In this document: one piece after another, positions 22,507 to 59,439 of the stretch | Layout: each line of letters starts with the position of its first letter | Numbering within the stretch: position 1 is the stretch's first letter | Source: Bradymonadales bacterium | GTDB lineage: Bacteria > Myxococcota_A > UBA9042 > PWKZ01 | NCBI GenBank assembly: GCA_003559575.1 | Contig: PWKZ01000169.1 | Span: 197 to 64,196 of the forward strand | DNA length: 64,000 nt | Direction: 5' to 3' | The notes under the pieces: model-generated | What the model saw: the letters and a program-made list of their open reading frames with translations, nothing else | What the model was told of the DNA's origin: nothing | Database searches by the model: none | Program-made: the position numbers and the translations under genes

Positions 22507-22524
22507 CTGTCCTTTCGGGGTGAG

Positions 22525-28046: not shown

Positions 28047-28762
28047 CGCCCACCTCCCGACTCCGCGTCAAAGCTCATCGCCGGCCCGGATTCTCGGTGG
28101 ATACTGTCGCGACGGAGCCACAGCGTCTCGCCGGTCGCGGCGTCGACAAACACCGAGACCTGTCCCAGAGGAATAATGGTCGGAACGAGCACCTGGTAGG
28201 CCCGCCGCGCCGGCGGGCCGGCAAGCACCGTCAGCCCGATACGCACCCGGACTCCTTCGGCCTGCCCCGCCACTTCGGCGCGCGCCAACGCCTCCGCTTC
28301 CTCGTGGGAAATGAGATCCTCGGCGGGCGCGAGCGAGACCTCTGCGACGTTCAGGTGCACACTGCGCACCTGCCTCCCGCTCTCGTCAAACACCACCGTC
28401 GCCCCCCTGTCGGCCACCTCCAATCCGTCGGCCATCTGCCGGAGCCTGACCACGCGGCTGCGATGGGTCGCGCTCTCGGAGACCACGCGGAAATCGGCTG
28501 CGGCTAGACCGAGGAGGGCAGCGTGCCGCTCTAAGAACCAGGAGGCACGCGCGGCAAGGTCCGGGCCTTCCGTCATTTCGCGCAATCCGGTGATGAGGCT
28601 TGGGTAACGAGTTCCGTGCGGCACTACAGCCTGCACCTGAGAGCCGAAGCGCTCCTCGGCCAGCCCGCGAAAACCCTCCGCGTCAAAGGGGGCCGCCTGG
28701 GCCGCCCCCGTCATCGCGAAAGCAACCAGAGACAACAGCACCGCCGTGGCCGGTCGTCGCAT
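28043..28762 (-). CDS. hypothetical secreted protein
   Basis: Signal peptide MRRPATAVLLSLVAFAMTGAAQA. 4-bp overlap with the upstream metalloprotease gene suggests co-transcription. Confidence 0.4.
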   Translation of the reverse strand: MRRPATAVLLSLVAFAMTGAAQAAPFDAEGFRGLAEERFGSQVQAVVPHGTRYPSLITGLREMTEGPDLAARASWFLERHAALLGLAAADFRVVSESATHRSRVVRLRQMADGLEVADRGATVVFDESGRQVRSVHLNVAEVSLAPAEDLISHEEAEALARAEVAGQAEGVRVRIGLTVLAGPPARRAYQVLVPTIIPLGQVSVFVDAATGETLWLRRDSIHRESGPAMSFDAESGGGR

Positions 28763-28873
28763 TGAGCTCTCCTTGAAGAATCGAGTGGACACCGCCGCTT
28801 TTGGCGATGAGCGAGAGGTTTAATGAGGGAATCCTCCTCCCTCACGGAGCGGGAGGAGGAGTAGCGCGGAGCG

Positions 28874-29185
28874 CTACCAGCGGTCGCCGCCGCGGCCTCC
28901 ACCGCCGCCGCCGCCGCCCCAGTCATCGCGACGAGGTGCCCGCTCCTGGGCAAAGTCGACCTTGATCCGCCGACCTCCAAAATCGGTGCCGTTGAGCGCC
29001 TCGAGCGCCGTCTGCGCATCCTCTTCGTTTTCGTAAGTCACGAACCCAAAACCGCGCGAACGGCCGGACTCGCGATCAGTAATGACCTTGGCCTCCACCA
29101 ACGTCCCATGTTTCTCAAACCCCTCGTGAAGGGCCTCGTCGTCGGTTGCCCATGGCAAACCACCCACAAACAGCTTCCTTGACAT
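28874..29185 (-). CDS. RRM-type RNA-binding protein with Gly-rich tail
   Basis: RNP-2 (KLFVGGLPW) and RNP-1 (RGFGFVTY) motifs. C-terminal GGGGGGGRGG. Preceded by an unusually AT-rich ~330-bp leader. Confidence 0.8.
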   Translation of the reverse strand: MSRKLFVGGLPWATDDEALHEGFEKHGTLVEAKVITDRESGRSRGFGFVTYENEEDAQTALEALNGTDFGGRRIKVDFAQERAPRRDDWGGGGGGGGRGGDRW

Positions 29186-29518: not shown

Positions 29519-29543
29519 GGTCCACGGACTTCGGCCGTGGACC
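29519..29543 (-). terminator. hairpin with UUCG-type tetraloop downstream of giant lipoprotein gene 1
   Basis: GGTCCACGG a C [TTCG] G CCGTGGACC. 9-10 bp GC-rich stem. T6 on the minus strand lies ~13 nt downstream, not a textbook U-tract. Confidence 0.35.
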
Positions 29544-29585: not shown

Positions 29586-32500
29586 TCAGAAGTTGGTCTC
29601 CAGCGCTGGCCCATCCGCTCCATCGGCGCCCGGCTCCCCTAGCGAGAATCCACCCGACCCCCCGAGTCCGCCCCGGCCCGCGTCGATGAAGGTGTTGTCC
29701 GTCCGCCAGGGCTGCACCAGCGCCGGGTCGATCCCCTCCGCGAAGATGCCGTAGGCCGGCCCACCGCAGCCACCGCCCCCACCGCCGCCGTGACCGCCGT
29801 TGCCGCCGGTGCCGCCGCGGCCCCCTGCGAAAGCGGGGTAGGTGGGATCGACGGGATCGCTGTCGCCGGATCCGCCCCCGTCACCGCCGATCCCCCCGGC
29901 TCCGCCGGCGCCGCCGGCCCCGCCGTTACCGCCGGCGCCGCCGTAGCCGCCTACACCGCCGTAGATTGCGTTCCCGTGGATTGCAGGCGGGCTCGTGGGG
30001 GGCGAGTCGAACAGTACGAAGAGCCCGAATGCGCCGCCACCGCCGGTGCCGCCCTCCCCCCCGGCGCCGCCGCACGCGCCGGCGCCACCGCCGCCGCCGG
30101 TGCCGCCGAGGTTGTCGTAGCCGTACCCTTTGGCAAAGCACGGCTGGTGAACCGCCGCTCCCCCGCCGGAGCCCCCGCCCCCACCGCCGCTCCCGGCGGT
30201 CCCGTCGCCTCCGTCGAGTCGCGGGGGGGGATGAAAGAGGCCGTCGGTGATCGTCGCCGAGGCGAGCTCACAAACCGCCCCGCCATGCGCGTCGGCACCT
30301 CGCGCGCCATCGACTCCCGGGATCCCCTGGAGCGGACCAAAGGTCGAGTAGCCCGCACAGTTATATGATTGATGCCAGACGTCGCGGCCGGCCGCGCCTC
30401 CTGTCCCACCGCCGCCGATGACGCCTCCATCGTCCCCGGCCACGCCTCTCTCTTCAGGCCGTGGAACCCCGGTGACCGAGCCGTCATAGGTGGGACACCC
30501 GCGCGCCCCGCCTGCGCCGCCGCTGCTGGAAGTTCCAGCGCAGCTCTCCACGCCGGGCGCGCCACCCGCCGACCAATGGCTCGAGGTACAATCGTGGCGA
30601 GTGATCCCATACTCGAACCACAGATCGAGGGCCGCCACGCCGGGGCCCCCCGGTTGCCCCACCGCGCCGCTCGAGCCGTCGCCACCGCGCAGCCCGTCGC
30701 CGCCTGATCCGGCAAAGACCTCGTTGTAACCGAGCTCGAGAGTCTCGTCGCAGTTGCGAACGTAAATGGCATAAGACGAGGCCCCCGGGTCGCGCACCGG
30801 CGCCCCGAAGACCGAGAAGCCGGCGAGCGCGACGCTCCCGGGATCGCCGCCCGTGAGATCGATGGCGTTGACCACACCCGGGAGGCCGAGCTCCGGTTGC
30901 AGGCCCACGATCGCGGTCTGGTACAAAGCCGGGTCGCGCAGAGCAAAGTCGGCGCTGTATCCGCCGAATACCGCGACCCCGGCGACGAGGTTGACGGTCT
31001 CGCTATAGACTCCCGTGGCGACGTACACATACGGCACCCCCGCGATCGCCGCGGCGTCGATTCCCGCCTGGATCGTGCGTTTGGGGCGAATCTCGTCGTC
31101 GACCTGATCCCATCGCCCGTCGTACCCGTCGTCACCGTGCTTGGCGACAAAGATCCCGTTGTCTCGCTCGCCGTCCATACCGTCGCAGTTCTCGTCGAGC
31201 CCCCACGGATCGGGGCGGTCATGCGGCTGCGGGTCACAGCACTCGCAGCCGTCGGCCCAGTTCTCATTGACATTGAAGCAGTCCTCGACGCATTCGAATC
31301 GACACGCGGGCGGTTCGAGCGTGTCGTCGCAATAGGCCCAGGCGCCCGGAAGATCGATGGCGCTGCAGTCGTTGCCGCACCCCCCGCAGGCCTCGTCGGA
31401 CGTATAACGACCGAACTCATCGACGAATCCGTCGTCCACCACCCCGTTGCAGTTGGTGTCGCGGCCGTCACAGACCTCCTCGGGCGGCACGCACTCGGAC
31501 CAGCCCGACTCCAGGCACTCGCGTGTCCCCTCGCAAAAGTAGTCCGGCTCGCCTTCGGGCGGATAGGCCAGCAGACAACCGCTCAACAAGCCCACGTTGG
31601 CGGCGTTGCAGCGGCACGCGCCGGTGTCCGGGACGCAGATCGAGTCGATGCATGTGGCGCCGGCCGGGCAGTCGCCGACGGTGTCGCACTCGGGCAGACA
31701 AAAGCGCCCGTCCTCGAGCATGCGGCACTCGGACCCCACGGCGAGACAGTCCGCGTCCGTCGTGCAAGGTGTGCAGAGATCAGTGGTGAACGGGGTGCAG
31801 CTCACGGCATCGAGCGGCACGTACCCGGGAGAGCAGCTCGCGACAACACAGCGGGGGAAATCGCCGCTCGAGTCGCATTCGGCCACGCCGTTTTCGATGC
31901 TCCCTGTGCAGGAGCGGTTACAAGCCCCGCAGTGGTCCTGGTGCGTGTAGAAGCCCGTCACCGGCTCTCTAAACCCGTCGTCGGTGATGCCGTTGCAGGT
32001 ATCGTCAAGCCCATTGCAGGTCTCTTCGGGCAGGGGCTCGCCGGGTTCGGCCGTACAGACGAGCGGCCCCGCGGGGTTCACCGAGTCGCACTGATAGACC
32101 CCGACAGACTGACAGATCCCATGGCCCGCCACGCAGGCCTGGCCCTGCGTGTCCCACCACCCCTCGGGGTGATCGTCGGTGAGCCCGTTGCAGTTGTTGT
32201 CGCGTCCATCGCAGACCTCGGGCTCGGCGTCGCCGGCCACCGCGTTGCAAACCGTGCTTTCGCCGTCCGCGGCGCAGACGAAGTAACCCCGGCGCAAACA
32301 AGCCCCAAGACCAGCCGAGCATGGTTCGCCGAGGTCGTCGAAGCCGCTGTCGGTGATTCCATCACAGTTGTTGTCGCGTCCGTCGCAGCGCTCGGGCGCG
32401 GGAGTGGGCGCGGTACAGATCCAACCCCGCCCCTCGGGGGTATCGCCGCACACCCATTGGCCGGCGCATGTGCCCCACTCGTTACTGTTCTCGCAGCTCC

Positions 32501-35500
32501 ACTCGCCCCCCGGAGGCGACTCGACGTTGTCGATTATTCCGTCGCAGTTGTCGTCGATGCCATTGCAGTCCTCGGGCATGGGTTCTCGCGCATCGCACTC
32601 GCTCCACCCCGGAGTCTCCTCTGGTTGACAGCGCTGAACCCCACGGCACGTCCCGTGCTCGTTCTCGCGGTGGCAAGGGCGAATTGCACCCTCGGTGCCG
32701 GGCAGACAGGTACACGAACGGCTCACGGGCAGACAACGTCCGCCCTCGCACTCGAATCCAGTCGGGCAGTCCTCATCCAGATCGCAGCCGCGAGTGCAGA
32801 AGCTCCCGCCGTCCAGCGACTCGCAGCGCCCTTCGTCGAGCCCGCTGCAATGCTCGTCCTCGCCACAGAGCTGGCAGTCGTAAGCGGTGGTCACGGGGAC
32901 ACAAACGCGCTCGTTGGAGGGGGGGATCAAATATCCCGGCTCACAGCCGACGGGGACACAGAAGGCCGCCCCGTCGCGCTCGCGGCACTCGGTCTCCGTG
33001 GCGTGCGGCACGCGTCCCTCGCAAGAAAAGTCACAAATGCCGCAGTGGTCGAAGTGGTTGTAGACGCCTGTCCCGGGGTTGCGGAACGGCTCGTCCGGGA
33101 TCCCGCTGCAGTCGTCGTCGATGCCGTTGCACACCTCGGTTTGCGGGGTGCGCGCGGAACAGTGAAAGCCCTCGACTCCCAGGCACAGCCACTCGCCCTC
33201 ACAGGTACCGAACTCATTGCTCACCTCACAGGGTTCGCTCGGCGGCTCCACATCGTTGTCCACCAACCCGTCGCAGTTGTCGTCGAGGCCGTTGCACTCC
33301 TCTTGACGGGGCACGGGGGCAGTGCAACCGCCCCACCCAGCCTGAAAATCACAGGTCTCGAGACCGAGGCAAGTGCCGAACTCATTGCTCTGCCGGCAGG
33401 GACGCTCGGCGCCGTCGTGCGCGGGCAGGTTGCACGTACACTGGCCCGACTCGGGGTGGCACAAGAATTTGCCGTCAACCCGCTCGAGGCACTCGAATTG
33501 CGCGGGGCAAACACCCGCGGGATCGCCGTGGATGTTGTCGGGGCCGCAGTCGCGACCACAGAACCAGCCGTCGTCGAGGAGCATGCAGGCGCTCCCCGGC
33601 AGGCGGCAGCTCTCGTCGGTGACACAGGGCTGACACGTGATCTCGGTTAGCTCCAGACAGGCGGCGCCTACCCGGTAATAGCCCTCGAGGCAGCGCTCCA
33701 CCGCGCAGACCGGCACGTCACCGCTCGCGTCACAGTACGCCACCGCTCCAGGGATCGCTCCCTCGCAAGAGATGCCGCACGCGCCGCAGTGATGGTGGTC
33801 CACATAACGCCCGGCTTCGTCGCGGAAGTCTTCATCGGTCAATCCGTTGCAGTTGTCGTCGAGTCCGTTGCACTCTTCGGGCTGTGGCGTTCGCGCGCTG
33901 CACACGAGATCGGTCGAGTCGGAGGTACAATGAAGGACGCCCGCGCACTCGTAGCGCTCGCCCTCGATCTCGGCCTCCGCATAGCACGGCGCGCCCAACC
34001 CCTCCACGTCGTCGATGAGCCCGTTGCAGTCGTCGTCGCGGCCATTACACACCTCGGGCATCGGCCAGTGGGCGCTGCACTCGCTCCACGCCTCGTATGG
34101 CTCGTCGCAGGTCTTGACCCCCTTGCAAAGCCCATACTCGTTTTCGCGCTCGCAGTAGCGCGTGAGCCCGTGGTTGTCGGGCGTGCAATCGCAAGATCCC
34201 GAAAGCGGCACGCACTGATCGGGACCGCCGTCGAACGGGAGACATTCGTAGCCCGCCGGGCAGTCCGCGCCGTGAAGCGAGCCCGGGCCACACGCGCGGC
34301 CACAGAACAACCCATCCTCGATGGGGATGCAGCGGTCGCCGGGCACCGGGCAGTTGGCGTCATGGACACACGGGTTGCAAAGGCTCGCCAAGAGCGGGAG
34401 ACAGGTGGTCGGCCCTGTCTGGACGAACCCCTCGTCGCACTCGACCACCACACACTTGGGCTCCTCATCGCCCATGACGCAAGCCGAGACGCCGTTGGGG
34501 AACCGTCCGAGGCAAGAGTTGCCGCAGGTTCCGCAGTGCTCGTCATGAACGTACTCGCCCGACTCGTCGCGAAACGGCCCGTCGGTGACACCATCGCAGT
34601 TGTTGTCGTATCCGTCGCAGCGCTCGGGTTCAGGCTCCTGGGGAACCACGCAGTCCCAGCCGTCGAATCCACGACATACCCAACTGCCGCCGCATGTCCC
34701 GTGCTCGTTTTGGAGCTGACAAGGTTCGCTCGGCAGGAGCGGTTCGTCGTCCACGAGGCCGCTGCAGTTGTCATCGCGCCCGTTACACTCTTCGGGGGCG
34801 GGGGTCGCCGCGGTGCATTCGCTCCAGCCACTGAGCCCCTCACAGACCTCGACCCCGCGGCAGATCCCGTGTTCGTTCTCCCGAGAGCACATCCGCTGCT
34901 GCCCGATGTTGGCCAGAGTGCAGTCGCAACGGTTGGAGGGCGGCACACACTGGGCTACCAACTCGCCGGTCTCGACCGCGGTACGTTCCTCGCAGACAAA
35001 GCCCTCCGGGCAGAGGCCTTGCTCACCACAAGGCCGCCCGCAGCGCGGGCCGTCGTCGAGCGCGACGCACGCGCCGGGCCCACACTGGCGGTCCACGGAG
35101 CACGAGCCGCAGAGGAAGCTCTCGCCCCAGTAGCACAGGAAAAGAGCGTCGGGCCAACTTTCGGGGGCGGCACGACACTCCCACCCCGTGGGGCACGTCT
35201 CGAAGCATGGCACGGTGCAGACGAACCCCTCGTCCCATGGAACACAGTAGCCGGAGTCACAGTCGGCCGATGTCTCGCACTCGGCGCCGATCGCGCGCTC
35301 TTCACCCTCCCCCGGGCGCAGCGGCGGATCCTTCGGGGCGGCAATCTCAGGTCCCATATCCCGCTGATCGGGGAGCTGGATGTCCGGGAGCGCCTCGACC
35401 TCGACTGTCTCCGATGGCGTCACCACATCCGACGGCGTGGCCGATTCTTCTGCGCACCCGGCGAACAGAAGGGCGAGCGCAACGCTTGTTAGTGTGATTT

Positions 35501-35510
35501 TGTGCTTCAT
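29586..35510 (-). CDS. giant Cys-rich repeat lipoprotein 1 (MopE-type metal-binding motif modules, beta-helix domain, Gly-rich C-terminus)
   Basis: 1974 aa. Lipobox LLFAGC. About 12 modules carrying CNGxDDxCxGxxD(E/D) plus HCGxCGxxC. DUF1565-like beta-helix stretch (RTIQAGIDAA...VYVATGVYSETV). PGRS-like GGxGGxGG repeats. Terminal ...ETNF. Confidence 0.8.
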   Translation of the reverse strand: MKHKITLTSVALALLFAGCAEESATPSDVVTPSETVEVEALPDIQLPDQRDMGPEIAAPKDPPLRPGEGEERAIGAECETSADCDSGYCVPWDEGFVCTVPCFETCPTGWECRAAPESWPDALFLCYWGESFLCGSCSVDRQCGPGACVALDDGPRCGRPCGEQGLCPEGFVCEERTAVETGELVAQCVPPSNRCDCTLANIGQQRMCSRENEHGICRGVEVCEGLSGWSECTAATPAPEECNGRDDNCSGLVDDEPLLPSEPCQLQNEHGTCGGSWVCRGFDGWDCVVPQEPEPERCDGYDNNCDGVTDGPFRDESGEYVHDEHCGTCGNSCLGRFPNGVSACVMGDEEPKCVVVECDEGFVQTGPTTCLPLLASLCNPCVHDANCPVPGDRCIPIEDGLFCGRACGPGSLHGADCPAGYECLPFDGGPDQCVPLSGSCDCTPDNHGLTRYCERENEYGLCKGVKTCDEPYEAWSECSAHWPMPEVCNGRDDDCNGLIDDVEGLGAPCYAEAEIEGERYECAGVLHCTSDSTDLVCSARTPQPEECNGLDDNCNGLTDEDFRDEAGRYVDHHHCGACGISCEGAIPGAVAYCDASGDVPVCAVERCLEGYYRVGAACLELTEITCQPCVTDESCRLPGSACMLLDDGWFCGRDCGPDNIHGDPAGVCPAQFECLERVDGKFLCHPESGQCTCNLPAHDGAERPCRQSNEFGTCLGLETCDFQAGWGGCTAPVPRQEECNGLDDNCDGLVDNDVEPPSEPCEVSNEFGTCEGEWLCLGVEGFHCSARTPQTEVCNGIDDDCSGIPDEPFRNPGTGVYNHFDHCGICDFSCEGRVPHATETECRERDGAAFCVPVGCEPGYLIPPSNERVCVPVTTAYDCQLCGEDEHCSGLDEGRCESLDGGSFCTRGCDLDEDCPTGFECEGGRCLPVSRSCTCLPGTEGAIRPCHRENEHGTCRGVQRCQPEETPGWSECDAREPMPEDCNGIDDNCDGIIDNVESPPGGEWSCENSNEWGTCAGQWVCGDTPEGRGWICTAPTPAPERCDGRDNNCDGITDSGFDDLGEPCSAGLGACLRRGYFVCAADGESTVCNAVAGDAEPEVCDGRDNNCNGLTDDHPEGWWDTQGQACVAGHGICQSVGVYQCDSVNPAGPLVCTAEPGEPLPEETCNGLDDTCNGITDDGFREPVTGFYTHQDHCGACNRSCTGSIENGVAECDSSGDFPRCVVASCSPGYVPLDAVSCTPFTTDLCTPCTTDADCLAVGSECRMLEDGRFCLPECDTVGDCPAGATCIDSICVPDTGACRCNAANVGLLSGCLLAYPPEGEPDYFCEGTRECLESGWSECVPPEEVCDGRDTNCNGVVDDGFVDEFGRYTSDEACGGCGNDCSAIDLPGAWAYCDDTLEPPACRFECVEDCFNVNENWADGCECCDPQPHDRPDPWGLDENCDGMDGERDNGIFVAKHGDDGYDGRWDQVDDEIRPKRTIQAGIDAAAIAGVPYVYVATGVYSETVNLVAGVAVFGGYSADFALRDPALYQTAIVGLQPELGLPGVVNAIDLTGGDPGSVALAGFSVFGAPVRDPGASSYAIYVRNCDETLELGYNEVFAGSGGDGLRGGDGSSGAVGQPGGPGVAALDLWFEYGITRHDCTSSHWSAGGAPGVESCAGTSSSGGAGGARGCPTYDGSVTGVPRPEERGVAGDDGGVIGGGGTGGAAGRDVWHQSYNCAGYSTFGPLQGIPGVDGARGADAHGGAVCELASATITDGLFHPPPRLDGGDGTAGSGGGGGGSGGGAAVHQPCFAKGYGYDNLGGTGGGGGAGACGGAGGEGGTGGGGAFGLFVLFDSPPTSPPAIHGNAIYGGVGGYGGAGGNGGAGGAGGAGGIGGDGGGSGDSDPVDPTYPAFAGGRGGTGGNGGHGGGGGGGCGGPAYGIFAEGIDPALVQPWRTDNTFIDAGRGGLGGSGGFSLGEPGADGADGPALETNF

Positions 35511-35525
35511 TGCCTTGCCTCGCCC

Positions 35526-38500
35526 TTAGAAGTTGGTATCTGTCGCCACCCCGTCATGGCCATCCTCACCCGGCTCCCCGAGAGAGAACCCCCCGACGCC
35601 GCCCTGCCCGCCCGCGCCGGGCGCGAGGAAGTCGTTGGCCGCGCTCCAGACGGAGAGATCGAACACCGCCGGCGGCCACGCGAAGATGCCGTAGGCAGGC
35701 CCCCCGGCCCCGCCGGCGCCGCCGCCGCCGTGACCGCCTCGCCCGCCGTTACCACCACGCCCGCCCTGGAACGAAGGGTAGCTCGAAAACATCGGATCGC
35801 TTGGATCCAGGTGCCCGCCACCACCGCCGGCGCCGCCGAACCCGCCGACTCCACCCGCACCGCCGGTGCCGCCGAAGCCGCCATCACCGCCTGCGCCACC
35901 GACCCCACCCACGATCATGTTGTGCTCGATAATGGGCGGGCTCGTCTCGGCGCCGGAGAAGACGACGAACAGCCCAAACGCGCCGCCACCGCCTTTGCCG
36001 CCGGTGCCGGCCGAGCCGGGGCAGGCGCCGGCACCGCCGCCGCCGCCGCTTCCGCCGAGGTTGTGCCACCCGTACCCCTTGGAGTTACAGCTATTGTCCA
36101 CATAAGCGCCGGCGCCCGAGCCGCCTCCACCGCCTCCGCCGCCGAAAGTGCCGTTCGCACCGGACAGACCTCCCCCGGAGCGCCAGAGACCGGTCACGAG
36201 TCCCCCGAGCCCGCCGCTCTCGCCGCCGGTACCGTCGCCGCCCGCCGCGCCGTCGGTGCCGTTGGCGCCCTCGACCGGCCCATAGCTGTCATACCCGTCG
36301 CAGGAGAAGCGCTGGTGGTAGACATCCCAGCCGGCGGCGCCGCCGCCGGCCCCGCCCGCGGCGCCGGGCAGACCATTCTGTGACGCCACCGGCGCCACCG
36401 TGCGGTCGTTTGCAGAGTCCCAGGCCGGACAAACTCGCTCGCCGCCGGCGCCTCCCGAGGTCTCTGTGCCGTCGCAGGCGAACACCCCCGCGCTCCCGCC
36501 CGGCGAGTGATAGGCGACCGTGCACTCGTCTTGTCCCAGGCCATAGGCGGCGTGGATATCGAGGGCGTCCATGCCGCCCTCGCCCGCCACTCCATCGGCG
36601 CCATCAAAGCCGTTGGCGCCACGCAAGCCGCGACCGCCGGCGCCGGCGATGATCTGATTGTATGAGAGCTTCAGCGTCTCATCACAGCCGCGCACATAGA
36701 CGGCGTAGGAGCTAACCCCCGGGCGAGACTCCTCGTAGCCGAACACGCTGAAGCCGTCCAAAACCACGGAATCGCGAGGGCCGCCGTAAATGTCGATGGC
36801 GTTCACCGCCCCGGGCAGCTCTGGAGACGACTGGAGACCGAAAATGGCGGTCTCGAACCGTAATGGGTCGCGGCGCCTGAAGTCGGCGCTGTAGCCGCCA
36901 TAGACCTCGACTCCCGGTACCAAGACGACCGCTTCCTGATAGACCCCGGTCGCCACGTAGACATACGTCTTGCCTTCGTGTTCCGCGGCCGCGATCCCGG
37001 CCTGGATGGTCCGCAGCGGTTGCCCGAACACTCCCGCGGCATCGTCGTCGCCATGGCGCGCGACGAAGATCCCGTTGTCCTTCTCGCCGTCCATCCCATC
37101 GCAGTTCTCATCGATGCCGAGCGGATCGGGGCGATCAAACGGCGCCGGATCGCAACACTCACAGCCGGTGGTGGGATCGCCGTCGGCGTTGAAACAGTTC
37201 TCCACCTCCGCGCAGTCGATGGAGCAGACCGGCGGATCCGCCAGCGCATCGCACGCTCCGGGGCGCCCGTCGAAAGTCAGCAGCCGGCAGTTGTTGCCAC
37301 ACCCCCCGCAGTGCTCGTCGGTCACATATCGTCCGTCGACGGTGAAGGCGCCGTCGACGACTCCATCGCAGTTGTCATCCATGTAGTTGCAGACCTCGGG
37401 CGGCAGCTCACAGACCTCGGACCACCCCTCTTCCGTACACTCCTGCAAGCCATAGCAGACGCTGTCCTCGTAGTTGACTTCGCAGCCCCGCACGAGATCG
37501 GGGTTGCTCCCGTCGCAGTTGCAGGCATGGGTCACGGGGACACAGAAAGTCCCCTCGACCCCCGCGGCGCTCTCACAGACAAACCCGCTTGTGCAATCCA
37601 CGGGATCGGCGCAAGGGTTCACGCAGAAGTCGCCGTCGTCGAGAGTGACGCAGGCCGCGCCATCGAGGACACAAGTGTCGGCCGTGGTGCAGGGCTCGCA
37701 AGCCCCAAGCCCCGAAGGCACGCACCGAAACGGCGAGGCAGGGATGTAGCCCGCGGTGCACTCGGCCACCGCACACCGCGGCGCGGCATAGCTCTCGGAA
37801 TCACAGTACGCCGTAGAGTTGGGCACGGCGTCGCGACAGTCGATGCCGCAAGCGCCGCAGTGCTCCAGGTGGACGTACTGCGAATCCACCAGGAAGCCGT
37901 CGTCGGTGACGCCGTTGCACGTGTCGTCGAGCCCGTTGCATTGCTCCTCGGCCGCCGGCTCGCCCGGGACCGCGCTGCACACCAGCGCTCCGGCGGGATT
38001 GGCGGAATCGCAGACCAAGACCCCGTAGCGCGCGCAGGCCCCGATGCCCGCCACACACGGCTGCCCTTTGTCCTCCCACAGCGGCCCGTCGTCGGTGAGC
38101 CCGTTGCAACTATTGTCGCGTCCGTCGCAAACCTCGACCGAAGGCGCACCGGGCTCGACGTTGCACCGTGTCCCGCTGCCGTCCGGAGTACACTCGTAAA
38201 ACCCGAACCGCAGACACTCGCCCTGCCCTTCTGAGCATACATCGTACAGTTCGGGCCACAGCTCATCGGTGAGGCCGTTGCAGTTGTCGTCGATGTAATT
38301 GCAGCTCTCGGGCGCCGGCACCTGACCCAAGCAAATCCACCCGTCTTCACCGCCACAGCTCCACTGGCCGGGGCACTCGCCGTGCTCGTTGCTGATGGAA
38401 CACGCCTCGCTCGGCGGGACGACACCGTCGTCGGTCAACCCATTGCAATCGTCATCGCGACCATTGCACACCTCGGCCGCGGGCGTATCCGCGTCGCATG

Positions 38501-41489
38501 CACTCCAGCCGTCGGGATATGAGCAAGCCTGGGTCCCGGTACAGGTCCCGAACTCGTTACTCTCGAAACATGGCCGCACCCGACCGGCCTCGCCCTGAAG
38601 CAAGCAGGTGCAGGAACCGGTGGTCGGCAGGCAACGCCCCTCGTCACAGACGTAGGCGTCAAGGCAATCGGCCTCCGACTCGCACGTCCGGGTGCAAAAA
38701 GTCCCCTGGTCGACAGGCGTACACTCGCCCCCTTCCAGCGCGGCACACTGCGCGTTCTCGACACACGGCTGACAGTCGATGGTGTCGGCGCCCGGGACAC
38801 AAACTCTGTCGTTCGCCTCCGGCACCTCGTAGCCTGTAATGCATTCAACCGGCTTGCACAGCGCCGCGCCGTCCTCGACCACGCACGCCGTCTCGACGGC
38901 GTACATGACGGCGTCATCGCAGCCGTAGCCACAAAGCCCGCAGTGCTCGCGAGTGTGATAGACGCCGTTCTCATCACGAAACGGTCCGTCAACGACACCG
39001 TCGCAGTTGTCATCCTGATAGTTACAAATCTCGGCGCTCGGCTCTTGCGCGTTGCAGACGAAGCCGTCGTGACCCTCGCAAACCCAGTCGCCGTGGCAGA
39101 TCCCGTGCTCATTCTCCTTGGCGCAAGGCTCGGCGGGCGGAGCCAGCGGTCCGTCCGGCGAGTAGTCGATCCGGCCGTCGCAGTTGTTGTCGACTCCATC
39201 GCAGACCTCGGGGGCCGGCACCCGCGCGTCGCATTCGGACCAACCGCCCTCACCGCAGACCTGCTCGCCAACACAAAAGCCATATTCGTTTCGCACGGAG
39301 CAAAGTCGTCGGTTGCCGAGATCTTCTTCGTGCATGCAGCTACACGCCCCGGTGACGGGGACGCACTGGGGCTCTTGACCGGCCACTTCGAGACAATCGA
39401 ACCCCTCGGGGCAATCACCCTCCGGCGTGCCGTAGGCGTTGTCGGGCCCACAGCTTCGCCCACAAAAGCGCCCGTCGCCGAGCTCGAGACAGACGTCGCC
39501 GTCCCCGATGCAATTGAGATCCGAGATGCACGGCTCGCACAGCGATGGCGGCACAAGCTCGCAGGTGAAGGGCGACACCCGAACGTACCCGGGTTCGCAC
39601 CGGTCGACTACGCAGGTCGGCTGCTCCCTCGTGCCATCGCACCGTTCAGTAGCGTTCGCGATCGTGCCGAGGCAAGAGTAGCCGCAGACTCCGCAGTGCT
39701 CGACGTGGACGTATGCCCCCGAATCGGGATCACGAAACGGTCCGTCGACCGTCCCATCGCAGTTGTCGTCGCGATAGTTGCACTCCTCCGCCCCGGCTTG
39801 CTGAACGTCACAGACCCACTCGGCGTCAACGCAACGCCACTCCCCGACGCAGCGCGCCGGCTCGCCTGTTGGATCGTCGGGGTCGTGATAGGTGGTCTCG
39901 CACGGTTCCTCGGGCGGCACGGGGTTGAAGTCGATCAACCCGTCACAGTTGTTATCGGTGCCGTCACAGCTCTCCGGCTCCGGGGTCCGCGCCGTACATT
40001 CCAGCCAACCTTCGAGCGCAGAGCAGGCCTGTGTCCCGAAGCAACGCCCGTACTCGTTTTCATTCATACAGGCGCGCTCCACCCCGTCGTTCTCAGGAGT
40101 GCAGCCGCAATGCCCGTTCTCCGGGACGCACTGGAACACACCGGCCTCGACCTCATCGCAGGTATAGTATTCGGGGCAATCGTCACCGTGGAACGAGTCG
40201 GGGCCGCAGTCGCGACCGCAAAATGTGCCGAGACCGATCTCGAGGCAGCGATCACCCGGGACCGCGCAGTTCACGTCATGGAGACACGGAAGGCACAGCG
40301 ACGACGTGACGGGTAGGCAGAGATGATCGCCGGCGCGATAGAAGTCTTCGTCGCACTCTAGCACCACACATTGGGCCTGGCCGTCGGCCACGCGACAGCC
40401 TCCCAGACCGCCCGCGAACATCTCGCGACAGTCATTGTCGCAGGCCCCGCAGTGCTCGTCGTGAACATACAGCCCGCTGTCGGGATCGCGGAAGCCCTCA
40501 TCGGTCAACCCGTTACAGTTGTCATCGCGATAATTGCAGATCTCAGGCTGAGGCTCGCGAGAGTCCACGCATACCCAGCCCTCAGTTCCGCGACACACAA
40601 AGCGCCCGACACAGGTTCCGTGCTCATTGGCCCACTCGCACGGCTCGTCGGGCGGGACCACATCGTTGTCCACCAGCCCGTCGCAGTTATTGTCCTGCCC
40701 GTCACACACTTCTTCCGTGGGCGGTTGGGCCGAACATTCGCTCCACCCCTCCTGGCCGTCGCAAGTTTGAAAACCATAGCAGACCTCACCCGCTTCGTTG
40801 GCCGCCGCGCAGGGGCGCTGCATCCCATCCCACCGGGGCGAGCAGTCGCAGCTTCCCGTAGGCGGGACGCACTGCGGCGACTCCTCGGTCCCATCGAGGT
40901 TGCTTATGTCCTCACAGATCCAGCCGTCCGGGCAGGTCCGGTCATAGGCGCAGGGCAGAGTGCAGGCCAGCTCCTCGTCGAGTGGCAGGCAATAGCCGCC
41001 GGCGCAGTCGAGATCGACGTTACACGGCGCGCAGAGGCGCTCGGAGGCCGGGTGGCAGATGAAGACATAGTCGGGGCCGGTCCCGCGCACGCTGCGGCAC
41101 TCCCACCCCTCGGGACACCCTTCGGTGCAAGGGTGGGTGCAGACCGTGCCGCCGTCAGGGCCGGCGATGCACCACCCCGATTCGCAGTCGTCATTGTCCG
41201 TGCAGGGATCCATGAACCCCGCCGGCGCGAACCCGTCCGGCGGGAGAGCGTCAATCGTCTCCGGGGGGAGTGGCCCGTCGGTGTCGACCGTCTCGACCAA
41301 CGCGACATCTCCCGGATCCACCAAAGTATCGCGCGAAATATCTTCCACGATGTCGAGCCCCGCCGGCCGCCCGTCCTCGCCGGCACACCCCGCACCGGCG
41401 ACCAACCCGCCGATCAGGAGACAAAGCGCGATCCCGCGCCGCCGGGTCTGTGATAATCGCCGGGTGAAAAGAAGGCGTGCGTAAGCCAT
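35526..41489 (-). CDS. giant Cys-rich repeat lipoprotein 2 (paralog of lipoprotein 1)
   Basis: Same architecture as lipoprotein 1 and colinear over its full length. Ends ...TDTNF. Start chosen at MAYARLL with AAGGAG RBS 6 nt upstream, lipobox LVAGAGC. 15-bp gap to the downstream paralog. Confidence 0.8.
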   Translation of the reverse strand: MAYARLLFTRRLSQTRRRGIALCLLIGGLVAGAGCAGEDGRPAGLDIVEDISRDTLVDPGDVALVETVDTDGPLPPETIDALPPDGFAPAGFMDPCTDNDDCESGWCIAGPDGGTVCTHPCTEGCPEGWECRSVRGTGPDYVFICHPASERLCAPCNVDLDCAGGYCLPLDEELACTLPCAYDRTCPDGWICEDISNLDGTEESPQCVPPTGSCDCSPRWDGMQRPCAAANEAGEVCYGFQTCDGQEGWSECSAQPPTEEVCDGQDNNCDGLVDNDVVPPDEPCEWANEHGTCVGRFVCRGTEGWVCVDSREPQPEICNYRDDNCNGLTDEGFRDPDSGLYVHDEHCGACDNDCREMFAGGLGGCRVADGQAQCVVLECDEDFYRAGDHLCLPVTSSLCLPCLHDVNCAVPGDRCLEIGLGTFCGRDCGPDSFHGDDCPEYYTCDEVEAGVFQCVPENGHCGCTPENDGVERACMNENEYGRCFGTQACSALEGWLECTARTPEPESCDGTDNNCDGLIDFNPVPPEEPCETTYHDPDDPTGEPARCVGEWRCVDAEWVCDVQQAGAEECNYRDDNCDGTVDGPFRDPDSGAYVHVEHCGVCGYSCLGTIANATERCDGTREQPTCVVDRCEPGYVRVSPFTCELVPPSLCEPCISDLNCIGDGDVCLELGDGRFCGRSCGPDNAYGTPEGDCPEGFDCLEVAGQEPQCVPVTGACSCMHEEDLGNRRLCSVRNEYGFCVGEQVCGEGGWSECDARVPAPEVCDGVDNNCDGRIDYSPDGPLAPPAEPCAKENEHGICHGDWVCEGHDGFVCNAQEPSAEICNYQDDNCDGVVDGPFRDENGVYHTREHCGLCGYGCDDAVMYAVETACVVEDGAALCKPVECITGYEVPEANDRVCVPGADTIDCQPCVENAQCAALEGGECTPVDQGTFCTRTCESEADCLDAYVCDEGRCLPTTGSCTCLLQGEAGRVRPCFESNEFGTCTGTQACSYPDGWSACDADTPAAEVCNGRDDDCNGLTDDGVVPPSEACSISNEHGECPGQWSCGGEDGWICLGQVPAPESCNYIDDNCNGLTDELWPELYDVCSEGQGECLRFGFYECTPDGSGTRCNVEPGAPSVEVCDGRDNSCNGLTDDGPLWEDKGQPCVAGIGACARYGVLVCDSANPAGALVCSAVPGEPAAEEQCNGLDDTCNGVTDDGFLVDSQYVHLEHCGACGIDCRDAVPNSTAYCDSESYAAPRCAVAECTAGYIPASPFRCVPSGLGACEPCTTADTCVLDGAACVTLDDGDFCVNPCADPVDCTSGFVCESAAGVEGTFCVPVTHACNCDGSNPDLVRGCEVNYEDSVCYGLQECTEEGWSEVCELPPEVCNYMDDNCDGVVDGAFTVDGRYVTDEHCGGCGNNCRLLTFDGRPGACDALADPPVCSIDCAEVENCFNADGDPTTGCECCDPAPFDRPDPLGIDENCDGMDGEKDNGIFVARHGDDDAAGVFGQPLRTIQAGIAAAEHEGKTYVYVATGVYQEAVVLVPGVEVYGGYSADFRRRDPLRFETAIFGLQSSPELPGAVNAIDIYGGPRDSVVLDGFSVFGYEESRPGVSSYAVYVRGCDETLKLSYNQIIAGAGGRGLRGANGFDGADGVAGEGGMDALDIHAAYGLGQDECTVAYHSPGGSAGVFACDGTETSGGAGGERVCPAWDSANDRTVAPVASQNGLPGAAGGAGGGAAGWDVYHQRFSCDGYDSYGPVEGANGTDGAAGGDGTGGESGGLGGLVTGLWRSGGGLSGANGTFGGGGGGGGSGAGAYVDNSCNSKGYGWHNLGGSGGGGGAGACPGSAGTGGKGGGGAFGLFVVFSGAETSPPIIEHNMIVGGVGGAGGDGGFGGTGGAGGVGGFGGAGGGGGHLDPSDPMFSSYPSFQGGRGGNGGRGGHGGGGAGGAGGPAYGIFAWPPAVFDLSVWSAANDFLAPGAGGQGGVGGFSLGEPGEDGHDGVATDTNF

Positions 41490-41559
41490 GGGAGACTCCT
41501 TACGGCCGATTTGCGTTGGCGGAGAGCACGGGAGCAGACCGAGCGACAAGCAGCCCTGA

Positions 41560-41641
41560 TCCGGATCCTCTGTTCGACTATAGCTGTCCGGCCAGTAGCT
41601 TTACAACCTCACCCCAAGCGCCCTCACTCCCCTCGGTCCAC
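41560..41641. repeat. partial copy of the intergenic repeat family (shares a 33-bp exact block with 63930..63962)
   Basis: CCCTCGGTCCACGGACGCGGTGGATGATTGAGG is identical at 41609 and 63930. Flanking ATAGCT-containing sequence is also similar. Contains a short stem TCCAC/GTGGA. Confidence 0.45.
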
Positions 41642-41676
41642 GGACGCGGTGGATGATTGAGGATTCTGAGTTGACT

Positions 41677-41690
41677 TGAGACGGACTTGA
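41677..41690 (+). promoter_or_regulatory. FNR/CRP-family binding site (TTGAT-N4-ATCAA)
   Basis: TTGATCCAGATCAA matches the FNR consensus exactly. Centred about 42-43 bp upstream of the predicted TSS of nrfH (class II position). Confidence 0.5.
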
Positions 41691-41691
41691 T

Positions 41692-41719
41692 CCAGATCAA
41701 GTTGCCGATGCGCGCTCGC
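41692..41719 (+). promoter_or_regulatory. sigma70-like promoter of nrfHA
   Basis: -35 TTGCCG (41692-41697), 16-nt spacer, -10 TATAAT (41714-41719). GGGGACGG RBS before the nrfH ATG at 41758. Confidence 0.45.
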
Positions 41720-41757
41720 CCTTTATAATCTTTGTGAAAACGTAACGGGGACGGTTC

Positions 41758-42393
41758 ATGTTGAACAGGCTCGGGCGCACATTTGTTTCGCTTTTGACTC
41801 TGCAAATAGTGGCGCCACGGTGGCGGCTGCCCTGTTTTGCGGCGCTCGGGGCTTTCGTCGGTCTCAGCTTGGTGGTCGCCCACATTTCGCGGGCCGCCTC
41901 CTACTTGACCGACTCCCCCGAGGCCTGCGTCAACTGTCACGTCATGACCAACGCTTATCTGACATGGCAGAGGAGCTCGCACGCCACGTTGACCACCTGC
42001 GGCGACTGCCACGTCCCCCAAGATAACATCCTGAGCCACTACCTCTACAAAGCCCGCGACGGCGCCTGGCACACGACTGCCTTCACCTTGCGCTTGGAGC
42101 CGCAAGTGCTGCGACTCTCCAAGAAGGCCATCCCGGTTATCGAGGCCAACTGCCGCCGCTGTCACGACCACGAGCTTCATCGCGTCTCCCTCGCGGCCCC
42201 CGATGAGCAGGGTCAACGATGCTGGGATTGCCACCGCGCCGTGCCGCACGGGAGTGTGCGGTCGCTCTCCACCTCGCCCGCGCTTATGCGCCCAGCGCTC
42301 CCCCCGTTGACGGGGCCGCTCAAGGGTCAAGGACAAACGATCGGCGGCCGGCCCGTCCGGCCCAGCGGTGGCGAACAAGGAGGACCACAATGA
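41758..42393 (+). CDS. nrfH: cytochrome c nitrite reductase small subunit, tetraheme NapC/NirT family
   Basis: N-terminal membrane anchor and four CXXCH motifs (CVNCH, CGDCH, CRRCH, CWDCH). Stop overlaps the nrfA start (ATGA). Confidence 0.85.
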   Translation: MLNRLGRTFVSLLTLQIVAPRWRLPCFAALGAFVGLSLVVAHISRAASYLTDSPEACVNCHVMTNAYLTWQRSSHATLTTCGDCHVPQDNILSHYLYKARDGAWHTTAFTLRLEPQVLRLSKKAIPVIEANCRRCHDHELHRVSLAAPDEQGQRCWDCHRAVPHGSVRSLSTSPALMRPALPPLTGPLKGQGQTIGGRPVRPSGGEQGGPQ

Positions 42394-43877
42394 GCCCGAC
42401 CCCCTCGACCGCGAAGCGCTCTCATCGCCCCTGGCAGGGCTTTGTAGTATTCGGGACGGCGATGCTGGCTGTCTTCCTGATGGGGCTTTTTTTCGCCTCC
42501 ATCATGGAGCGTCGGCGTGAAGCGCACCACATGGAGGTGCTCCAGCCGATTGCGGCGCTCGAATCCGACCCGGCCAAGTGGCGCGCCAACTATCCTCGCC
42601 AATACGACAGCTATCTTCGCACCAGAGAGACCGAGGCCGAGACCAAATACGGCGGCCCGGCTTTTCGCGACTACTTGGAGGAGACCCCCGCCAATGTGAT
42701 CCTTTTTGCCGGGATTGCGTTCTCGAGAGACTACAACCAGGCGCGCGGGCATTACTGGGCGCGCCGGGATACCCTCGACACCGGACGTCTGGCCCCCGAC
42801 AATCCCGGCACCTGCTGGACTTGCAAGAGTTCCGACGTCCCGCGGGTGATGGCCGAGCTGGGGGCAGGCCTCGTCGACGATCCCGAGAACGCGAGCTTTC
42901 GCGAGCGGCTGATGGCCGGCGCGGCGCCTTTCTATGCCACCAACTTTCATGAATTGACGCCCGAGATGAACCACACCATCGGCTGCCTGAACTGCCACGA
43001 TCCCGAGACGATGAGCCTCCGAATCACCCGCCCGGCGCTCGTCGAGGCGTTCGAGCGCCGCGAAATGGACATCGACGAGGTCTCTCATCAGGAGATGCGC
43101 TCCCTCGTTTGCGCCCAATGCCACGTCGAGTACTATTTCCGGGGCGAAAACGACCACCTCACCTTGCCGTGGGATCAGGGGACCACCGTCGAGGACATGG
43201 AGCGACACTTCGACGAGTACGAGTTCGCCGATTACACGCACGCCATCAGCGGCGCGCCGATAATCAAGATCCAGCACCCCGACTACGAACTATATCAGCG
43301 GGGCATCCACGCCTACCGCAGCGTCTCCTGCGCCGACTGCCACATGCCCTACAAGACGGAGGGCGGGGTCAAATACAGCGATCACCACCTCCAGAGCCCC
43401 CTCTTGAGCATCGACAACTCCTGCGCGGTCTGCCACCGCTGGAGCGAGACCGAGATCCGGGTTAGGGTGGAGTCGATTCAAGACAAGATCAAAGAGGGGC
43501 GCGAGCGCGCAGAGCGGGCGCTCGCGTTGGCCCACTTCGACGTGGCGGCGGCGGCCCAGGCGGGCGCCGACGACGCGGAGCTTGCGCGCGCGCGAGCGTT
43601 GTTACGCGGCTCGCAGGTCCGGTGGGACTTCGTCGCGGCCGCCAAGGGGATGGGGTTCCACGCCCCCCAAGAGGCCCAGCGGATTTTGACCGCCGCGGTG
43701 GAGTTGGCCCAGGAGGCACGCCTGGAGGCCGGCCGACTGCTCGCCGGCTACGGCTACACGGCGCCCGTCGCCTACCCCGCGTTTGAAACCAAGGAGCAGG
43801 CCCAAGCCCTCGTCCAACGCTTCACCAACGGCGATCCACCCAGTCTGTTGGTTGGCGGAACGGGCGCCCACCCCTGA
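42390..43877 (+). CDS. nrfA: cytochrome c552 nitrite reductase catalytic subunit (pentaheme, ammonia-forming)
   Basis: Diagnostic CXXCK active-site heme motif (CWTCKS) plus four CXXCH (CLNCH, CAQCH, CADCH, CAVCH). N-terminal signal anchor. AGGAGG RBS. Confidence 0.9.
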   Translation: MSPTPSTAKRSHRPWQGFVVFGTAMLAVFLMGLFFASIMERRREAHHMEVLQPIAALESDPAKWRANYPRQYDSYLRTRETEAETKYGGPAFRDYLEETPANVILFAGIAFSRDYNQARGHYWARRDTLDTGRLAPDNPGTCWTCKSSDVPRVMAELGAGLVDDPENASFRERLMAGAAPFYATNFHELTPEMNHTIGCLNCHDPETMSLRITRPALVEAFERREMDIDEVSHQEMRSLVCAQCHVEYYFRGENDHLTLPWDQGTTVEDMERHFDEYEFADYTHAISGAPIIKIQHPDYELYQRGIHAYRSVSCADCHMPYKTEGGVKYSDHHLQSPLLSIDNSCAVCHRWSETEIRVRVESIQDKIKEGRERAERALALAHFDVAAAAQAGADDAELARARALLRGSQVRWDFVAAAKGMGFHAPQEAQRILTAAVELAQEARLEAGRLLAGYGYTAPVAYPAFETKEQAQALVQRFTNGDPPSLLVGGTGAHP

Positions 43878-59399: not shown

Positions 59400-59439
59400 T
59401 TCCTTCCTCCCGGAGCCAGTGAAGCCCCCCCGCGCGTGG

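Follow-up and report, generated by a model that had tools for sequence, protein, structure and literature searches.

A tandem pair of giant cysteine-rich lipoprotein genes from an uncultured myxobacterium, with a candidate calcium-stiffened stalk and a conserved glycine-rich C-terminal domain

The C-rich domain of teneurin contains three bound Ca2+ ions in its solved structure (PMC9058538), and its core has previously been aligned with the consensus of the Pfam family PF11617 (PMC3278476). The name of that family derives from MopE/CorA of methanotrophs, surface-associated or secreted proteins that contain the short PF11617 motif. The copper site of MopE* consists of two His residues and a Trp-derived kynurenine (PMC3423442), a definition of the MopE*/CorA site that is also given in PMC3912023. 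For Gly-rich proteins such as PGRS domains and phage gp38 ("PGII sandwich"), GGX triplets with Gly at each third residue identify, at the level of sequence, the polyglycine-II sandwich model, in which left-handed helices pack in antiparallel sheets, and PGRS domains have been proposed to lie on the mycomembrane ("sailing").

In the stretch of 64,000 nucleotides analyzed here (the window), two adjacent real genes of an uncultured myxobacterium, A and B, each encode a protein of approximately 2000 residues. As described in the initial annotation, they are tandem paralogues; both reading frames are intact and on the minus strand. The downstream copy, gene A (29586..35510, minus strand, including the stop codon), was delineated from its open reading frame and translation; it encodes 1974 amino acids and is identical to database protein P0001. 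The upstream copy, gene B (35526..41489, minus strand, including the stop codon), encodes 1987 amino acids and is identical to database protein P0015. In the list of open reading frames, B at its longest extends over 35526–41549 and opens at a TTG at 41549; the ATG at 41489 appears to be the likelier start, given that an AAGGAG ribosome-binding site (41496..41501, minus strand) is located 6 nt upstream and that this start agrees with P0015. The two genes are separated by the 15 nt noted initially (35511..35525, minus strand), and this spacer, GGGCGAGGCAAGGCA, carries a GAGG ribosome-binding site and is identical in a sister strain. A candidate sigma-70-like promoter, defined solely by its match to the consensus (TTGTAA-18-TATAGT; 41577..41606, minus strand), is located 5' of B. 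A GC-rich hairpin read directly from the sequence approximately 45 nt past the stop codon of A (29519..29543, minus strand) is a possible terminator of the B–A unit; it was not called by the consensus scan. The genes nrfH and nrfA lie upstream of B–A in divergent orientation, as had been reported. The gene neighborhood varies among relatives and lends no support to a link with nrfHA, and the gene context indicated no ligand or partner. Adjacent genes in relatives often encode further giant proteins of surface type (PKD, DUF4215, LTD).

The GC3 values of A and B (0.80 and 0.79, respectively) are comparable to those of housekeeping genes of the same window, and 923 homologues were found at E < 1e-10. 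Frameshifts in relatives, which the initial annotation had named as a possible sign of artefact, were not seen in the sister strain, in which A and B are both intact and no Cys is altered; dN/dS was 0.27 for gene A, the copy compared at the DNA level with sister-strain locus L034. The reading frames are therefore genuine. Many long alternative-frame open reading frames overlap the region, as expected at a GC content of 66–69% and as would also be the case if A and B were artefacts of GC-rich repetitive DNA. That explanation is refuted by the evidence above, by the invariant Cys patterns of the homologues, and by two confident AF2 folds, and its probability is negligible.

Both proteins start with a signal peptide that ends in a lipobox with the invariant Cys of bacterial lipoproteins, in agreement with the initial annotation. 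This region comprises residues 1–19 of A (35454..35510, minus strand), ending in LLFAG and Cys19 (lipobox LFAGC), and residues 1–35 of B (41385..41489, minus strand), ending in LVAGAG and Cys35 (lipobox AGAGC, which is atypical at position –3). A lipoprotein signal was also detected in 87 of 112 full-length homologues. A sorting rule for lipoproteins based on Lys at +2 comes from work on Myxococcus xanthus; among the signals of A, B, and these 87 homologues, Lys at +2 is present in only one. Both proteins are thus predicted to be lipidated, and the two features that suggest a surface rather than a periplasmic location are their size and this lack of Lys at +2.

The Cys-rich stalk spans approximately residues 77–1425 of A (31236..35282, minus strand) and 96–1444 of B (37158..41204, minus strand), and in each case contains 11 PF11617 motifs and five HCGxCG elements. 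These features had been largely anticipated: 10 to 12 MopE-type modules were proposed (11 matches to C[ND]GxD[DN]xCxGxxD were found per protein) together with a recurring HCGxCGxxC element, and the estimate of approximately 10% Cys compares with measured values of 9.0% for A and 8.9% for B, rising to approximately 12% within the first ~1450 residues. The initial annotation lacked a further layer of organization, a supermodule of approximately 250 residues. An N-terminal Cys-rich subdomain is followed by five supermodules in A (residues 132–376, 377–625, 626–873, 874–1244, and 1245–1425) as well as in B (152–397, 398–649, 650–900, 901–1261, and 1262–1444). Full-length copies numbered 506 in 120 homologues, with 2–11 per protein among relatives having any. 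The supermodule alignment contains 40 invariant columns, 30 of which are Cys, and this even number is consistent with all of them being disulfide-paired. The AF2 model of the supermodule (pLDDT of 95.6) consists mostly of beta-hairpins, and the supermodule profile had no match in the PDB.

Several stretches of both proteins matched PF11617 (Cu-binding_MopE, "putative metal-binding motif") at an E value of 1e-33, with scores of 115.1 and 116.8 bits that exceed the Pfam gathering threshold of 27. No other Pfam family was detected at E ≤ 0.01, including LDL-receptor class A (PF00057), a six-Cys module of ~40 residues, the calcium cage of which (DxSDE) had been invoked as a likeness. Within the motif, the residues that never vary are E, C, D, C, G, and D, and neither His nor Trp is conserved. 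Profile-profile comparison with hhalign aligned the motif with the teneurin C-rich core over 13 columns at a probability of 87%, so that the positions of the DxDNDxDGxxD core that coordinate Ca are matched by acidic or amide residues: the invariant D13 and D21 as well as positions 10, 14, 15, and 17 (D/N) correspond to D843, D851, D840, N844, D845, and D847 of teneurin, respectively. The equivalent Asp and Asn residues of teneurin-4 coordinate Ca2+ in the manner of thrombospondin type-3 (T3) repeats and LA modules (PMC9058538). On the basis of this 13-column alignment, the acidic loops of A and B, with the pattern E-x-C-[ND]-G-x-D-[DN]-x-C-x-G-x-x-D, most likely bind Ca2+.

The COOH-terminal ~555 residues of both proteins constitute one conserved, strictly C-terminal domain that the initial annotation missed, and which we refer to as the head. 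In A, its first half (residues 1420–1600; 30711..31253, minus strand) opens with a CECCDP...DENCDGMDGE motif, after which comes a short right-handed beta-helix, and its second half (residues 1601–1974; 29589..30710, minus strand) is Gly-rich and conserved, contains runs of Gly with a period of 3, and ends in ETNF. In B, the beta-helix and Gly-rich region occupy residues 1441–1987 (35529..37169, minus strand) and end in DTNF. The AF2 model of the head (pLDDT of 91) contains a right-handed parallel beta-helix of approximately 150 residues and six turns, and PDB matches showed 12–21% identity over approximately 180 of the 555 residues. The earlier description of a DUF1565-like beta-helix therefore holds for the fold and not for the family, given that Pfam yielded no family at E ≤ 10, and hence no PF07602, for the COOH-terminal 554 residues of A or B; PF07602 was matched by one of 30 relatives (1.4e-5). 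Neither Pfam nor NCBIfam has a model for the head domain.

Gly accounts for approximately 35% of the last ~370 residues, its autocorrelation is 0.55 at lag 3, 0.33 at lag 6, and 0.18 at lag 9, and at least nine conserved (Gxx)n runs, each of 4–8 triplets, are present. This region shows almost no DSSP secondary structure despite a pLDDT of >90, with only short isolated strands in the last 370 residues of the confident model, and its (G-x-x)n segments probably form polyglycine-II-type helices. The C-terminus is thus Gly-rich, as the term "PGRS-like tail" implied, and belongs to a conserved, confidently folded domain rather than being a loose low-complexity extension. A terminal aromatic residue (Phe, as here, or Trp) is also a feature of autotransporter and outer-membrane beta-barrels, a possibility that was rejected because the model lacks a C-terminal barrel of 12 or more strands.

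The head was found at the extreme COOH-terminus in the top 150 matches, in host proteins of 413–4398 residues, and it remains constant across relatives while stalk length varies. At a threshold of E ≤ 1e-30, the head family comprises 1252 protein clusters (50% identity), the majority of which derive from uncultured Myxococcota, and its members end in NF in 74 of 120 homologues and in another aromatic residue in most others. The nearest homologues are MAG proteins of 1200–3400 residues with 37–54% identity, named "MopE-related protein" or "hypothetical protein" by NCBI. The "MopE-related" PF11617 repeat proteins of Myxococcota belong by sequence to the same family as A and B, whereas that name is a database annotation alone and carries over no function. 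We found no study of any family member in the literature, consistent with the initial statement that their function is uncharacterized.

The proposal of a recent tandem duplication was not upheld. A and B are 49% identical at the protein level and 68% identical over 563 nt at their 3' ends, and identity at third codon positions is 0.35–0.50 over the entire length, indicative of saturation. Given the protein identity and the saturated third positions, the duplication is not recent. A metagenome contig holds an orthologous tandem pair in the same gene order, and in a neighbor-joining tree of the C-terminal domain A grouped with the downstream member of this second pair and B with its upstream member (support of 177/200 and 191/200, respectively), with A and B being sisters in only 8/200. 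These results indicate an old duplication, the copies of which have been retained as a pair.

The reading that we favor, with somewhat better than even confidence, is that A and B are surface-anchored proteins in which a Ca2+-rigidified stalk presents a binding head; of the classes suggested initially, surface adhesin or matrix protein remains the most plausible. The two co-oriented paralogues are probably cotranscribed, and each giant lipoprotein would be anchored by the lipid at its N-terminus and exposed beyond the cytoplasmic membrane, most likely at the cell surface. The stalk of approximately 1350 residues would be a rod of five ~250-residue supermodules, each a chain of small beta-hairpin subdomains with up to 15 disulfides and two acidic loops, and Ca2+ in these loops would stiffen the junctions as in T3 repeats and the teneurin C-rich domain. 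At the far end, a short pectin-lyase-type beta-helix would run on into the Gly-rich region to form the constant functional part, which may bind a surface or polymer, and supermodule number would set its reach. The maintenance in tandem of two anciently diverged heads suggests two specificities. It is a more speculative proposal, and one that we regard as rather doubtful, that the head is an undescribed hybrid fold in which a short beta-helix passes into a conserved assembly of polyglycine-II helices. In that case, a large family of folded PGRS-like Gly domains would exist beyond mycobacteria and phage tail tips, the head would form the target-binding tip on Ca2+-stiffened stalks of adjustable length at the surface of uncultured, possibly predatory, Myxococcota, and the A/B pair would present two specificities.

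Sequestration of metal (copper, according to the Pfam name) by the 22 MopE motifs, abundant Cys residues, and CxxC elements of the two proteins would account for the strong PF11617 match and for the CxxC within HCGxCG, and a CzcB/CusB-type RND efflux system is located approximately 6 kb downstream in the locus of one relative. The His residues and the Trp-derived kynurenine of the MopE* site nevertheless have no counterpart among the motif invariants, neither the motif profile nor the whole protein matched MopE*, CorA, or, for the motif, any other PDB entry by sequence, and no conserved metal genes were found nearby in the window or in the loci of relatives. The even count of invariant Cys fits full disulfide pairing instead. 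Membership of the MopE/CorA copper proteins was accordingly rejected, and metal sequestration is very unlikely; the calcium cage suggested in the initial annotation fits better than copper, and copper sequestration by analogy with MopE is not supported.

Two other explanations concern the head and are each improbable, to a similar extent. The head might be an enzyme, a stalk-mounted pectin-lyase-fold polysaccharide lyase, hydrolase, or epimerase acting on prey or matrix glycans; several polar residues of its helix, D102, R106, D144, S160, Y161, and N177 (model numbering), are invariant or nearly so. The similarity is at the level of fold, however, with Foldseek giving no match at E < 0.08 and Pfam being silent, the helix is short, and the nonenzymatic adhesins PfbA and UpaB share the fold and appear in the same match list. 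Alternatively, A and B might be structural proteins of the envelope or matrix, such as an S-layer-like coat or spacer, in which the Gly-rich domain would not recognize a foreign target but would associate with itself or insert into the surface of the outer membrane, akin to the "sailing" proposed for PGRS domains. The strict C-terminal position with its conserved terminal aromatic residue, the PGRS-like GGX composition, and the occurrence in relatives of multiple paralogues within one genome (three in the AMXMBFR64 MAG, for example) are compatible with such a role. The model, however, contains no predicted beta-barrel or amphipathic membrane element, and an N-terminal lipid anchor is already present.

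Uncultured Myxococcota spend genes of 6–13 kb, often several per genome, on a stalk–head architecture. If the favored reading is correct, the head would be a new conserved Gly-rich domain that merits a family model. Such a model of the head family would reannotate at least 1252 clusters (50% identity, E ≤ 1e-30) that are now "hypothetical" or "MopE-related," and the misleading "Cu-binding" label would be corrected; practical value is modest pending a ligand or phenotype.

With regard to known systems, A and B lack the MopE*/CorA fold as well as its His-His-kynurenine Cu site. Pectin-lyase-fold proteins (DUF1565-type caps, phage tailspikes, and the adhesin PfbA) differ in that the helix of A and B has only approximately six turns and no Pfam match, and none of the PDB matches, the longest covering approximately 190 of 555 residues, reaches into the Gly-rich region. 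The tails of A and B share with PE_PGRS proteins and gp38 runs of GGX triplets with Gly conserved at every third residue, whereas they are interleaved with Cys and beta-strands and joined to a beta-helix. In contrast to PE_PGRS proteins, A and B have a lipoprotein signal and Cys-rich array at the NH2-terminus in place of the PE domain (no PE Pfam match) and GRPLI linker, their host is Gram-negative, and their Gly region, instead of being polymorphic, is highly conserved in both sequence and length. The motif core [ND]GxD[DN][ND]x[ND]GLxD aligns column for column with that of the teneurin C-rich domain, which, like T3 repeats, has Ca2+-binding, disulfide-bonded acidic loops. This likeness covers 13 columns, with the second Cys of the motif at a non-Cys position of teneurin, does not extend to the third Ca site of teneurin, which is LA-like, and does not establish homology. 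If the favored reading holds, the stalks would be a bacterial counterpart of the disulfide- and Ca2+-stiffened extracellular rods of eukaryotes, such as fibrillin, thrombospondin, and teneurin.

The two paralogous cysteine-rich lipoprotein genes are adjacent on the minus strand. The ORF listing places the downstream gene, A, at positions 29586–35510 (1974 amino acids, ATG start) and a long form of the upstream gene, B, with a TTG start, at 35526–41549. Gene B also contains an in-frame ATG at 41489, with AAGGAG located 6 nt upstream, and initiation there yields the 1987-residue public database product P0015. As the initial annotation had stated, both proteins possess a lipobox, a gap of 15 nt separates the genes, and the nrfHA genes are divergent from them. 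The spacer contains GAGG, and scanning it revealed no terminator between B and A. Given the short gap, the lack of a terminator within it, a GC-rich hairpin 3' of A, and a weak promoter-like site ~90 nt upstream of B, the two genes probably constitute a single transcription unit.

The possibility that the reading frames are artefacts of GC-rich sequence, which had been raised in the initial annotation, was refuted by several observations. The GC3 values of A (0.80) and B (0.79) are native in comparison with those of pnp (0.83) and nrfA (0.82), and A has 923 matches at E<1e-10 among database proteins. In a sister strain (GCA_007134265.1, locus L034), the 3' end of B is followed by the identical 15-nt spacer, and A is intact and has the same genes downstream of it. 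The proteins of the two strains are equal in length and differ at 14 residues in A and 9 in B, with no change of Cys. For A, the copy for which DNA was compared, dN/dS was 0.27 (21 synonymous and 18 non-synonymous differences). Eight of the 14 differences in A fall within residues 1201–1400 (window positions ~31311–31910), corresponding to the end of supermodule 4 and supermodule 5, which hints at a locally variable patch.

Similarity between the 3' ends of the genes had been taken to indicate a recent tandem duplication, and our comparisons contradict this interpretation. A and B share 49% identity along their entire length, with all modules in colinear order; their best DNA match is at the 3' end, with 68% identity over 563 nt. 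Third-codon-position identity is 0.35–0.50 in every 100-codon window, and third positions are therefore saturated, given the GC3. A JGI metagenome contig (L030) also carries a tandem pair, with P0022 upstream of P0005 at a distance of 10 nt. The closest match of A is P0005 (54%) and that of B is P0022 (52%), with cross-comparisons giving 43–47%. In a neighbour-joining bootstrap analysis of the C-terminal domain (numpy, 200 replicates), A grouped with P0004 and P0005 in 177 replicates, B with P0022 in 191, and A with B in 8, with all five proteins forming one clade in 175. Given the pairing of A with P0005 and of B with P0022 in both identity and bootstrap, the duplication is older than the split of the window and L030 lineages, and gene order has been retained in both. 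The DNA identities and the bootstrap thus rule out both recent duplication and gene conversion at the 3' end. P0013, a single-copy relative at locus L032, lies outside the five-protein clade, and duplication after its lineage branched off fits this position. The neighbourhood of P0013, with an AMP-binding enzyme and gyrBA, suggests partial synteny with the window; L032 also contains an FHA/sigma-54 activator near its single MopE-family gene.

Each protein has a stalk of five supermodules of ~250 amino acids, the fourth having two additional motifs and the fifth being shorter than the others. The motif content described earlier was borne out: 11 MopE-type motifs and five HCGxCGxxC elements per protein, PF11617 well over threshold in Pfam, 9% Cys overall (~12% in the first ~1450 residues), and ~35% Gly across the last ~335 residues. 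An HMM built from six supermodule copies identified 506 full-length copies among the 120 best homologues, at 2–11 per protein. When 40 copies were aligned, 40 columns proved invariant, 30 of them Cys, and the non-Cys invariant columns include E, D, and D in each of the two MopE motifs of the supermodule. The AF2 model of the supermodule (pLDDT 95.6) consists chiefly of beta-hairpins with coil between them, and on this prediction we read the stalk as a rod, a chain of small disulfide-locked subdomains. The HCGxCGxxC elements, located at residues 325, 574, 822, 1193, and 1374 of A, contain a C-x-x-C-G "knuckle" like that of rubredoxin and zinc-ribbon metal sites, and their Cys may be either disulfide-bonded or metal ligands. 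PDB sequence searches with the whole protein, the supermodule profile, and a 29-residue motif profile yielded nothing relevant.

The Pfam name of PF11617 implies copper, whereas the only invariant residues among the 22 motif copies of A and B are E, C, D, C, G, and D. The copper site of MopE* consists of two His and kynurenine (PMC3423442), and the Ca2+ that MopE* and CorA also bind is structural and separate from it (PMC3912023). PDB sequence searches detected no similarity of A or B to the MopE* or CorA chains. An alignment published earlier pairs the PF11617 consensus with the core that is conserved in the cysteine-rich domain of teneurins (PMC3278476). We aligned the published teneurin cores and compared them as a profile with the motifs of the window with hhalign, which gave a probability of 87% over 13 columns (NGxDDNCxGLxD versus DGIDNDxDGLxDC). 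In the structure of teneurin-4, exactly this core coordinates Ca2+ through its Asp and Asn residues, as thrombospondin type-3 repeats do (PMC9058538). Given the lack of a MopE*-type site, the alignment with the teneurin core, and the Ca2+ in teneurin-4, Ca2+ appears to be the better-supported ligand of the MopE motifs, by analogy over a short motif rather than by proven homology.

The head, comprising the last ~555 residues, was modelled from a 30-homologue alignment (pLDDT 91.2, pTM 0.79). Foldseek with this model returned no significant match, and none of the structural matches listed aligns over more than ~190 residues. Pfam and NCBIfam searches with the whole proteins and the C-terminal 554 amino acids identified PF11617 only, with no model covering the head; a hit to an NCBIfam Leptospira surface protein family (15.6 bits against a cut-off of 380) is meaningless. 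The DUF1565 label proposed for the beta-helix could not be retained, since the C-terminal 554 residues match no Pfam family at E<=10 and 1 of 30 relatives reaches PF07602 (1.4e-5). The remaining ~370 residues past the helix are highly conserved, with 115 positions at which Gly is present in >=80% and some eight Cys. Conserved Gly recurs with a period of 3 (autocorrelation of 0.55, 0.33, and 0.18 at lags 3, 6, and 9, compared with ~0 for the helix part), and the region contains at least nine runs of 4–8 G-x-x triplets that lack a DSSP assignment despite a pLDDT of >90. Polyglycine-II helices have been proposed for PGRS domains (PMC9436101), and the Gly-rich region bears the sequence signature of such helices, their geometry here being putative. 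The chain ends with a short strand followed by a conserved ..(T/A/S)N-F/Y/W terminus. P0058, P0046, and similar proteins have C-terminal tails with 20–24 Cys and, within the Gly-rich head, an additional insert rich in Cys. The insert matches Pfam Somatomedin_B in two of the 30 aligned heads (best E of 9.6e-5), and its presence in some family members shows that the head tolerates domain insertion at one position. Apart from the age of the duplication and the DUF1565 label, the initial annotation described a real finding well.

The window is core chromosome, containing gyrB, gyrA, infB, nusA, pnp, and truB. Upstream of B and divergent from it are nrfH (41758–42393, plus strand; NapC/NirT tetrahaem family) and nrfA (cytochrome c552), within an nrfHA span of 41758–43877. 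The nrfA ORF is listed from 42219, but its Pfam match starts only at residue 117, so the real start is probably near 42400. A 270-residue minus-strand ORF at 41578–42390 is probably spurious, given that it has no Pfam match and is antisense to nrfH. Directly downstream of A lies a minus-strand gene for a 103-residue RRM-type RNA-binding protein with a Gly/Arg-rich tail (28874–29185); the sister strain has this gene in the same place (L034 7130–7441). Two minus-strand ORFs of 249 and 599 residues with overlapping start and stop (26247–28792; no Pfam match) are likewise kept in order there (L034 7553–9729). Further features are two adjoining minus-strand FHA-domain proteins beside an AMP-binding enzyme (21148–24312; 452 residues with two FHA domains, and 595 residues) and a minus-strand radical SAM cluster at 56845–63830 (a B12-binding radical SAM protein of 599 residues, a second radical SAM protein of 792, and a 671-residue protein with a C-terminal methyltransferase domain), possibly a cassette for modification or natural-product synthesis. 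On the plus strand, a 620-residue ORF with weak Kelch-repeat matches (7626–9488) adjoins a 593-residue ORF (9845–11626) matching PF13809 Tubulin_2 ("tubulin like"; Pfam, E of 5e-28) just upstream of gyrB and gyrA; the presence of such a tubulin-like protein in bacteria, here in a Myxococcota-like genome, may merit separate study.

Gene context was not conserved across five loci and gives no indication of function, and the adjacency to nrfHA is thus coincidental rather than a functional link. An RND efflux system (OEP, CzcB-CusB, ACR_tran; L030 22993–26489) lies ~6 kb downstream of the orthologous tandem pair and is probably also coincidental, given that it was not seen at the other loci inspected. 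Lipoprotein signals were present in 87 of 112 homologues, in most of which the +2 residue is G, S, or P, with Lys just once. The lipoprotein sorting rule of Myxococcus xanthus relates the +2 residue to inner-membrane retention and, if applied here, argues against such retention. An N-terminal lipid anchor, a stalk of variable length, and a constant C-terminal head would make up the design expected of a binding protein displayed at the surface, with Ca2+ sites and disulfides that would stiffen the stalk and confer protease resistance outside the cell; the maintenance side by side of two anciently diverged heads suggests two targets. We consider the odds to be somewhat in favour of a surface-anchored stalk-and-head binding or structural protein. 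That the head is an enzyme, possibly one that cuts a polymer, seems to us unlikely, and we would give a purely structural or self-associating role the same low probability. Metal sequestration, which the initial annotation had held plausible, is the least probable of these roles and very doubtful.

The reading as a surface-anchored stalk-and-head protein concerns a large, database-visible, and unstudied family, of which A and B are members. A profile of the head recovered at least 1486 clusters at 90% identity, and in an exhaustive library clustered at 50% identity it matched 1252 clusters at E<=1e-30, a number that rises to 5136 at E<=1e-10. The top 150 matches, in proteins of 413 to 4398 residues, all end at or within ~40 residues of the C-terminus, most of them at the last residue; many shorter members have 0–3 MopE motifs. 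Most of the long "non-hits" of a stricter search retain a Gly-rich tail of ~600 residues ending in N-F/Y/W. Where a source is named, it is nearly always a MAG of uncultured Myxococcota, Myxococcales, or "Deltaproteobacteria". Among the matches listed, the sole locus from a cultured strain is that of Cystobacter fuscus (L019), whose match is limited to model residues 6–100, the pre-helix motif and helix cap. The literature searched contained no study of this family and no description of the supermodule or the C-terminal domain, both of which are uncurated. Given that giant modular surface proteins are common, A and B do not represent a new kind of system in principle; they are a distinct variant whose folded, glycine-rich head is unusual.
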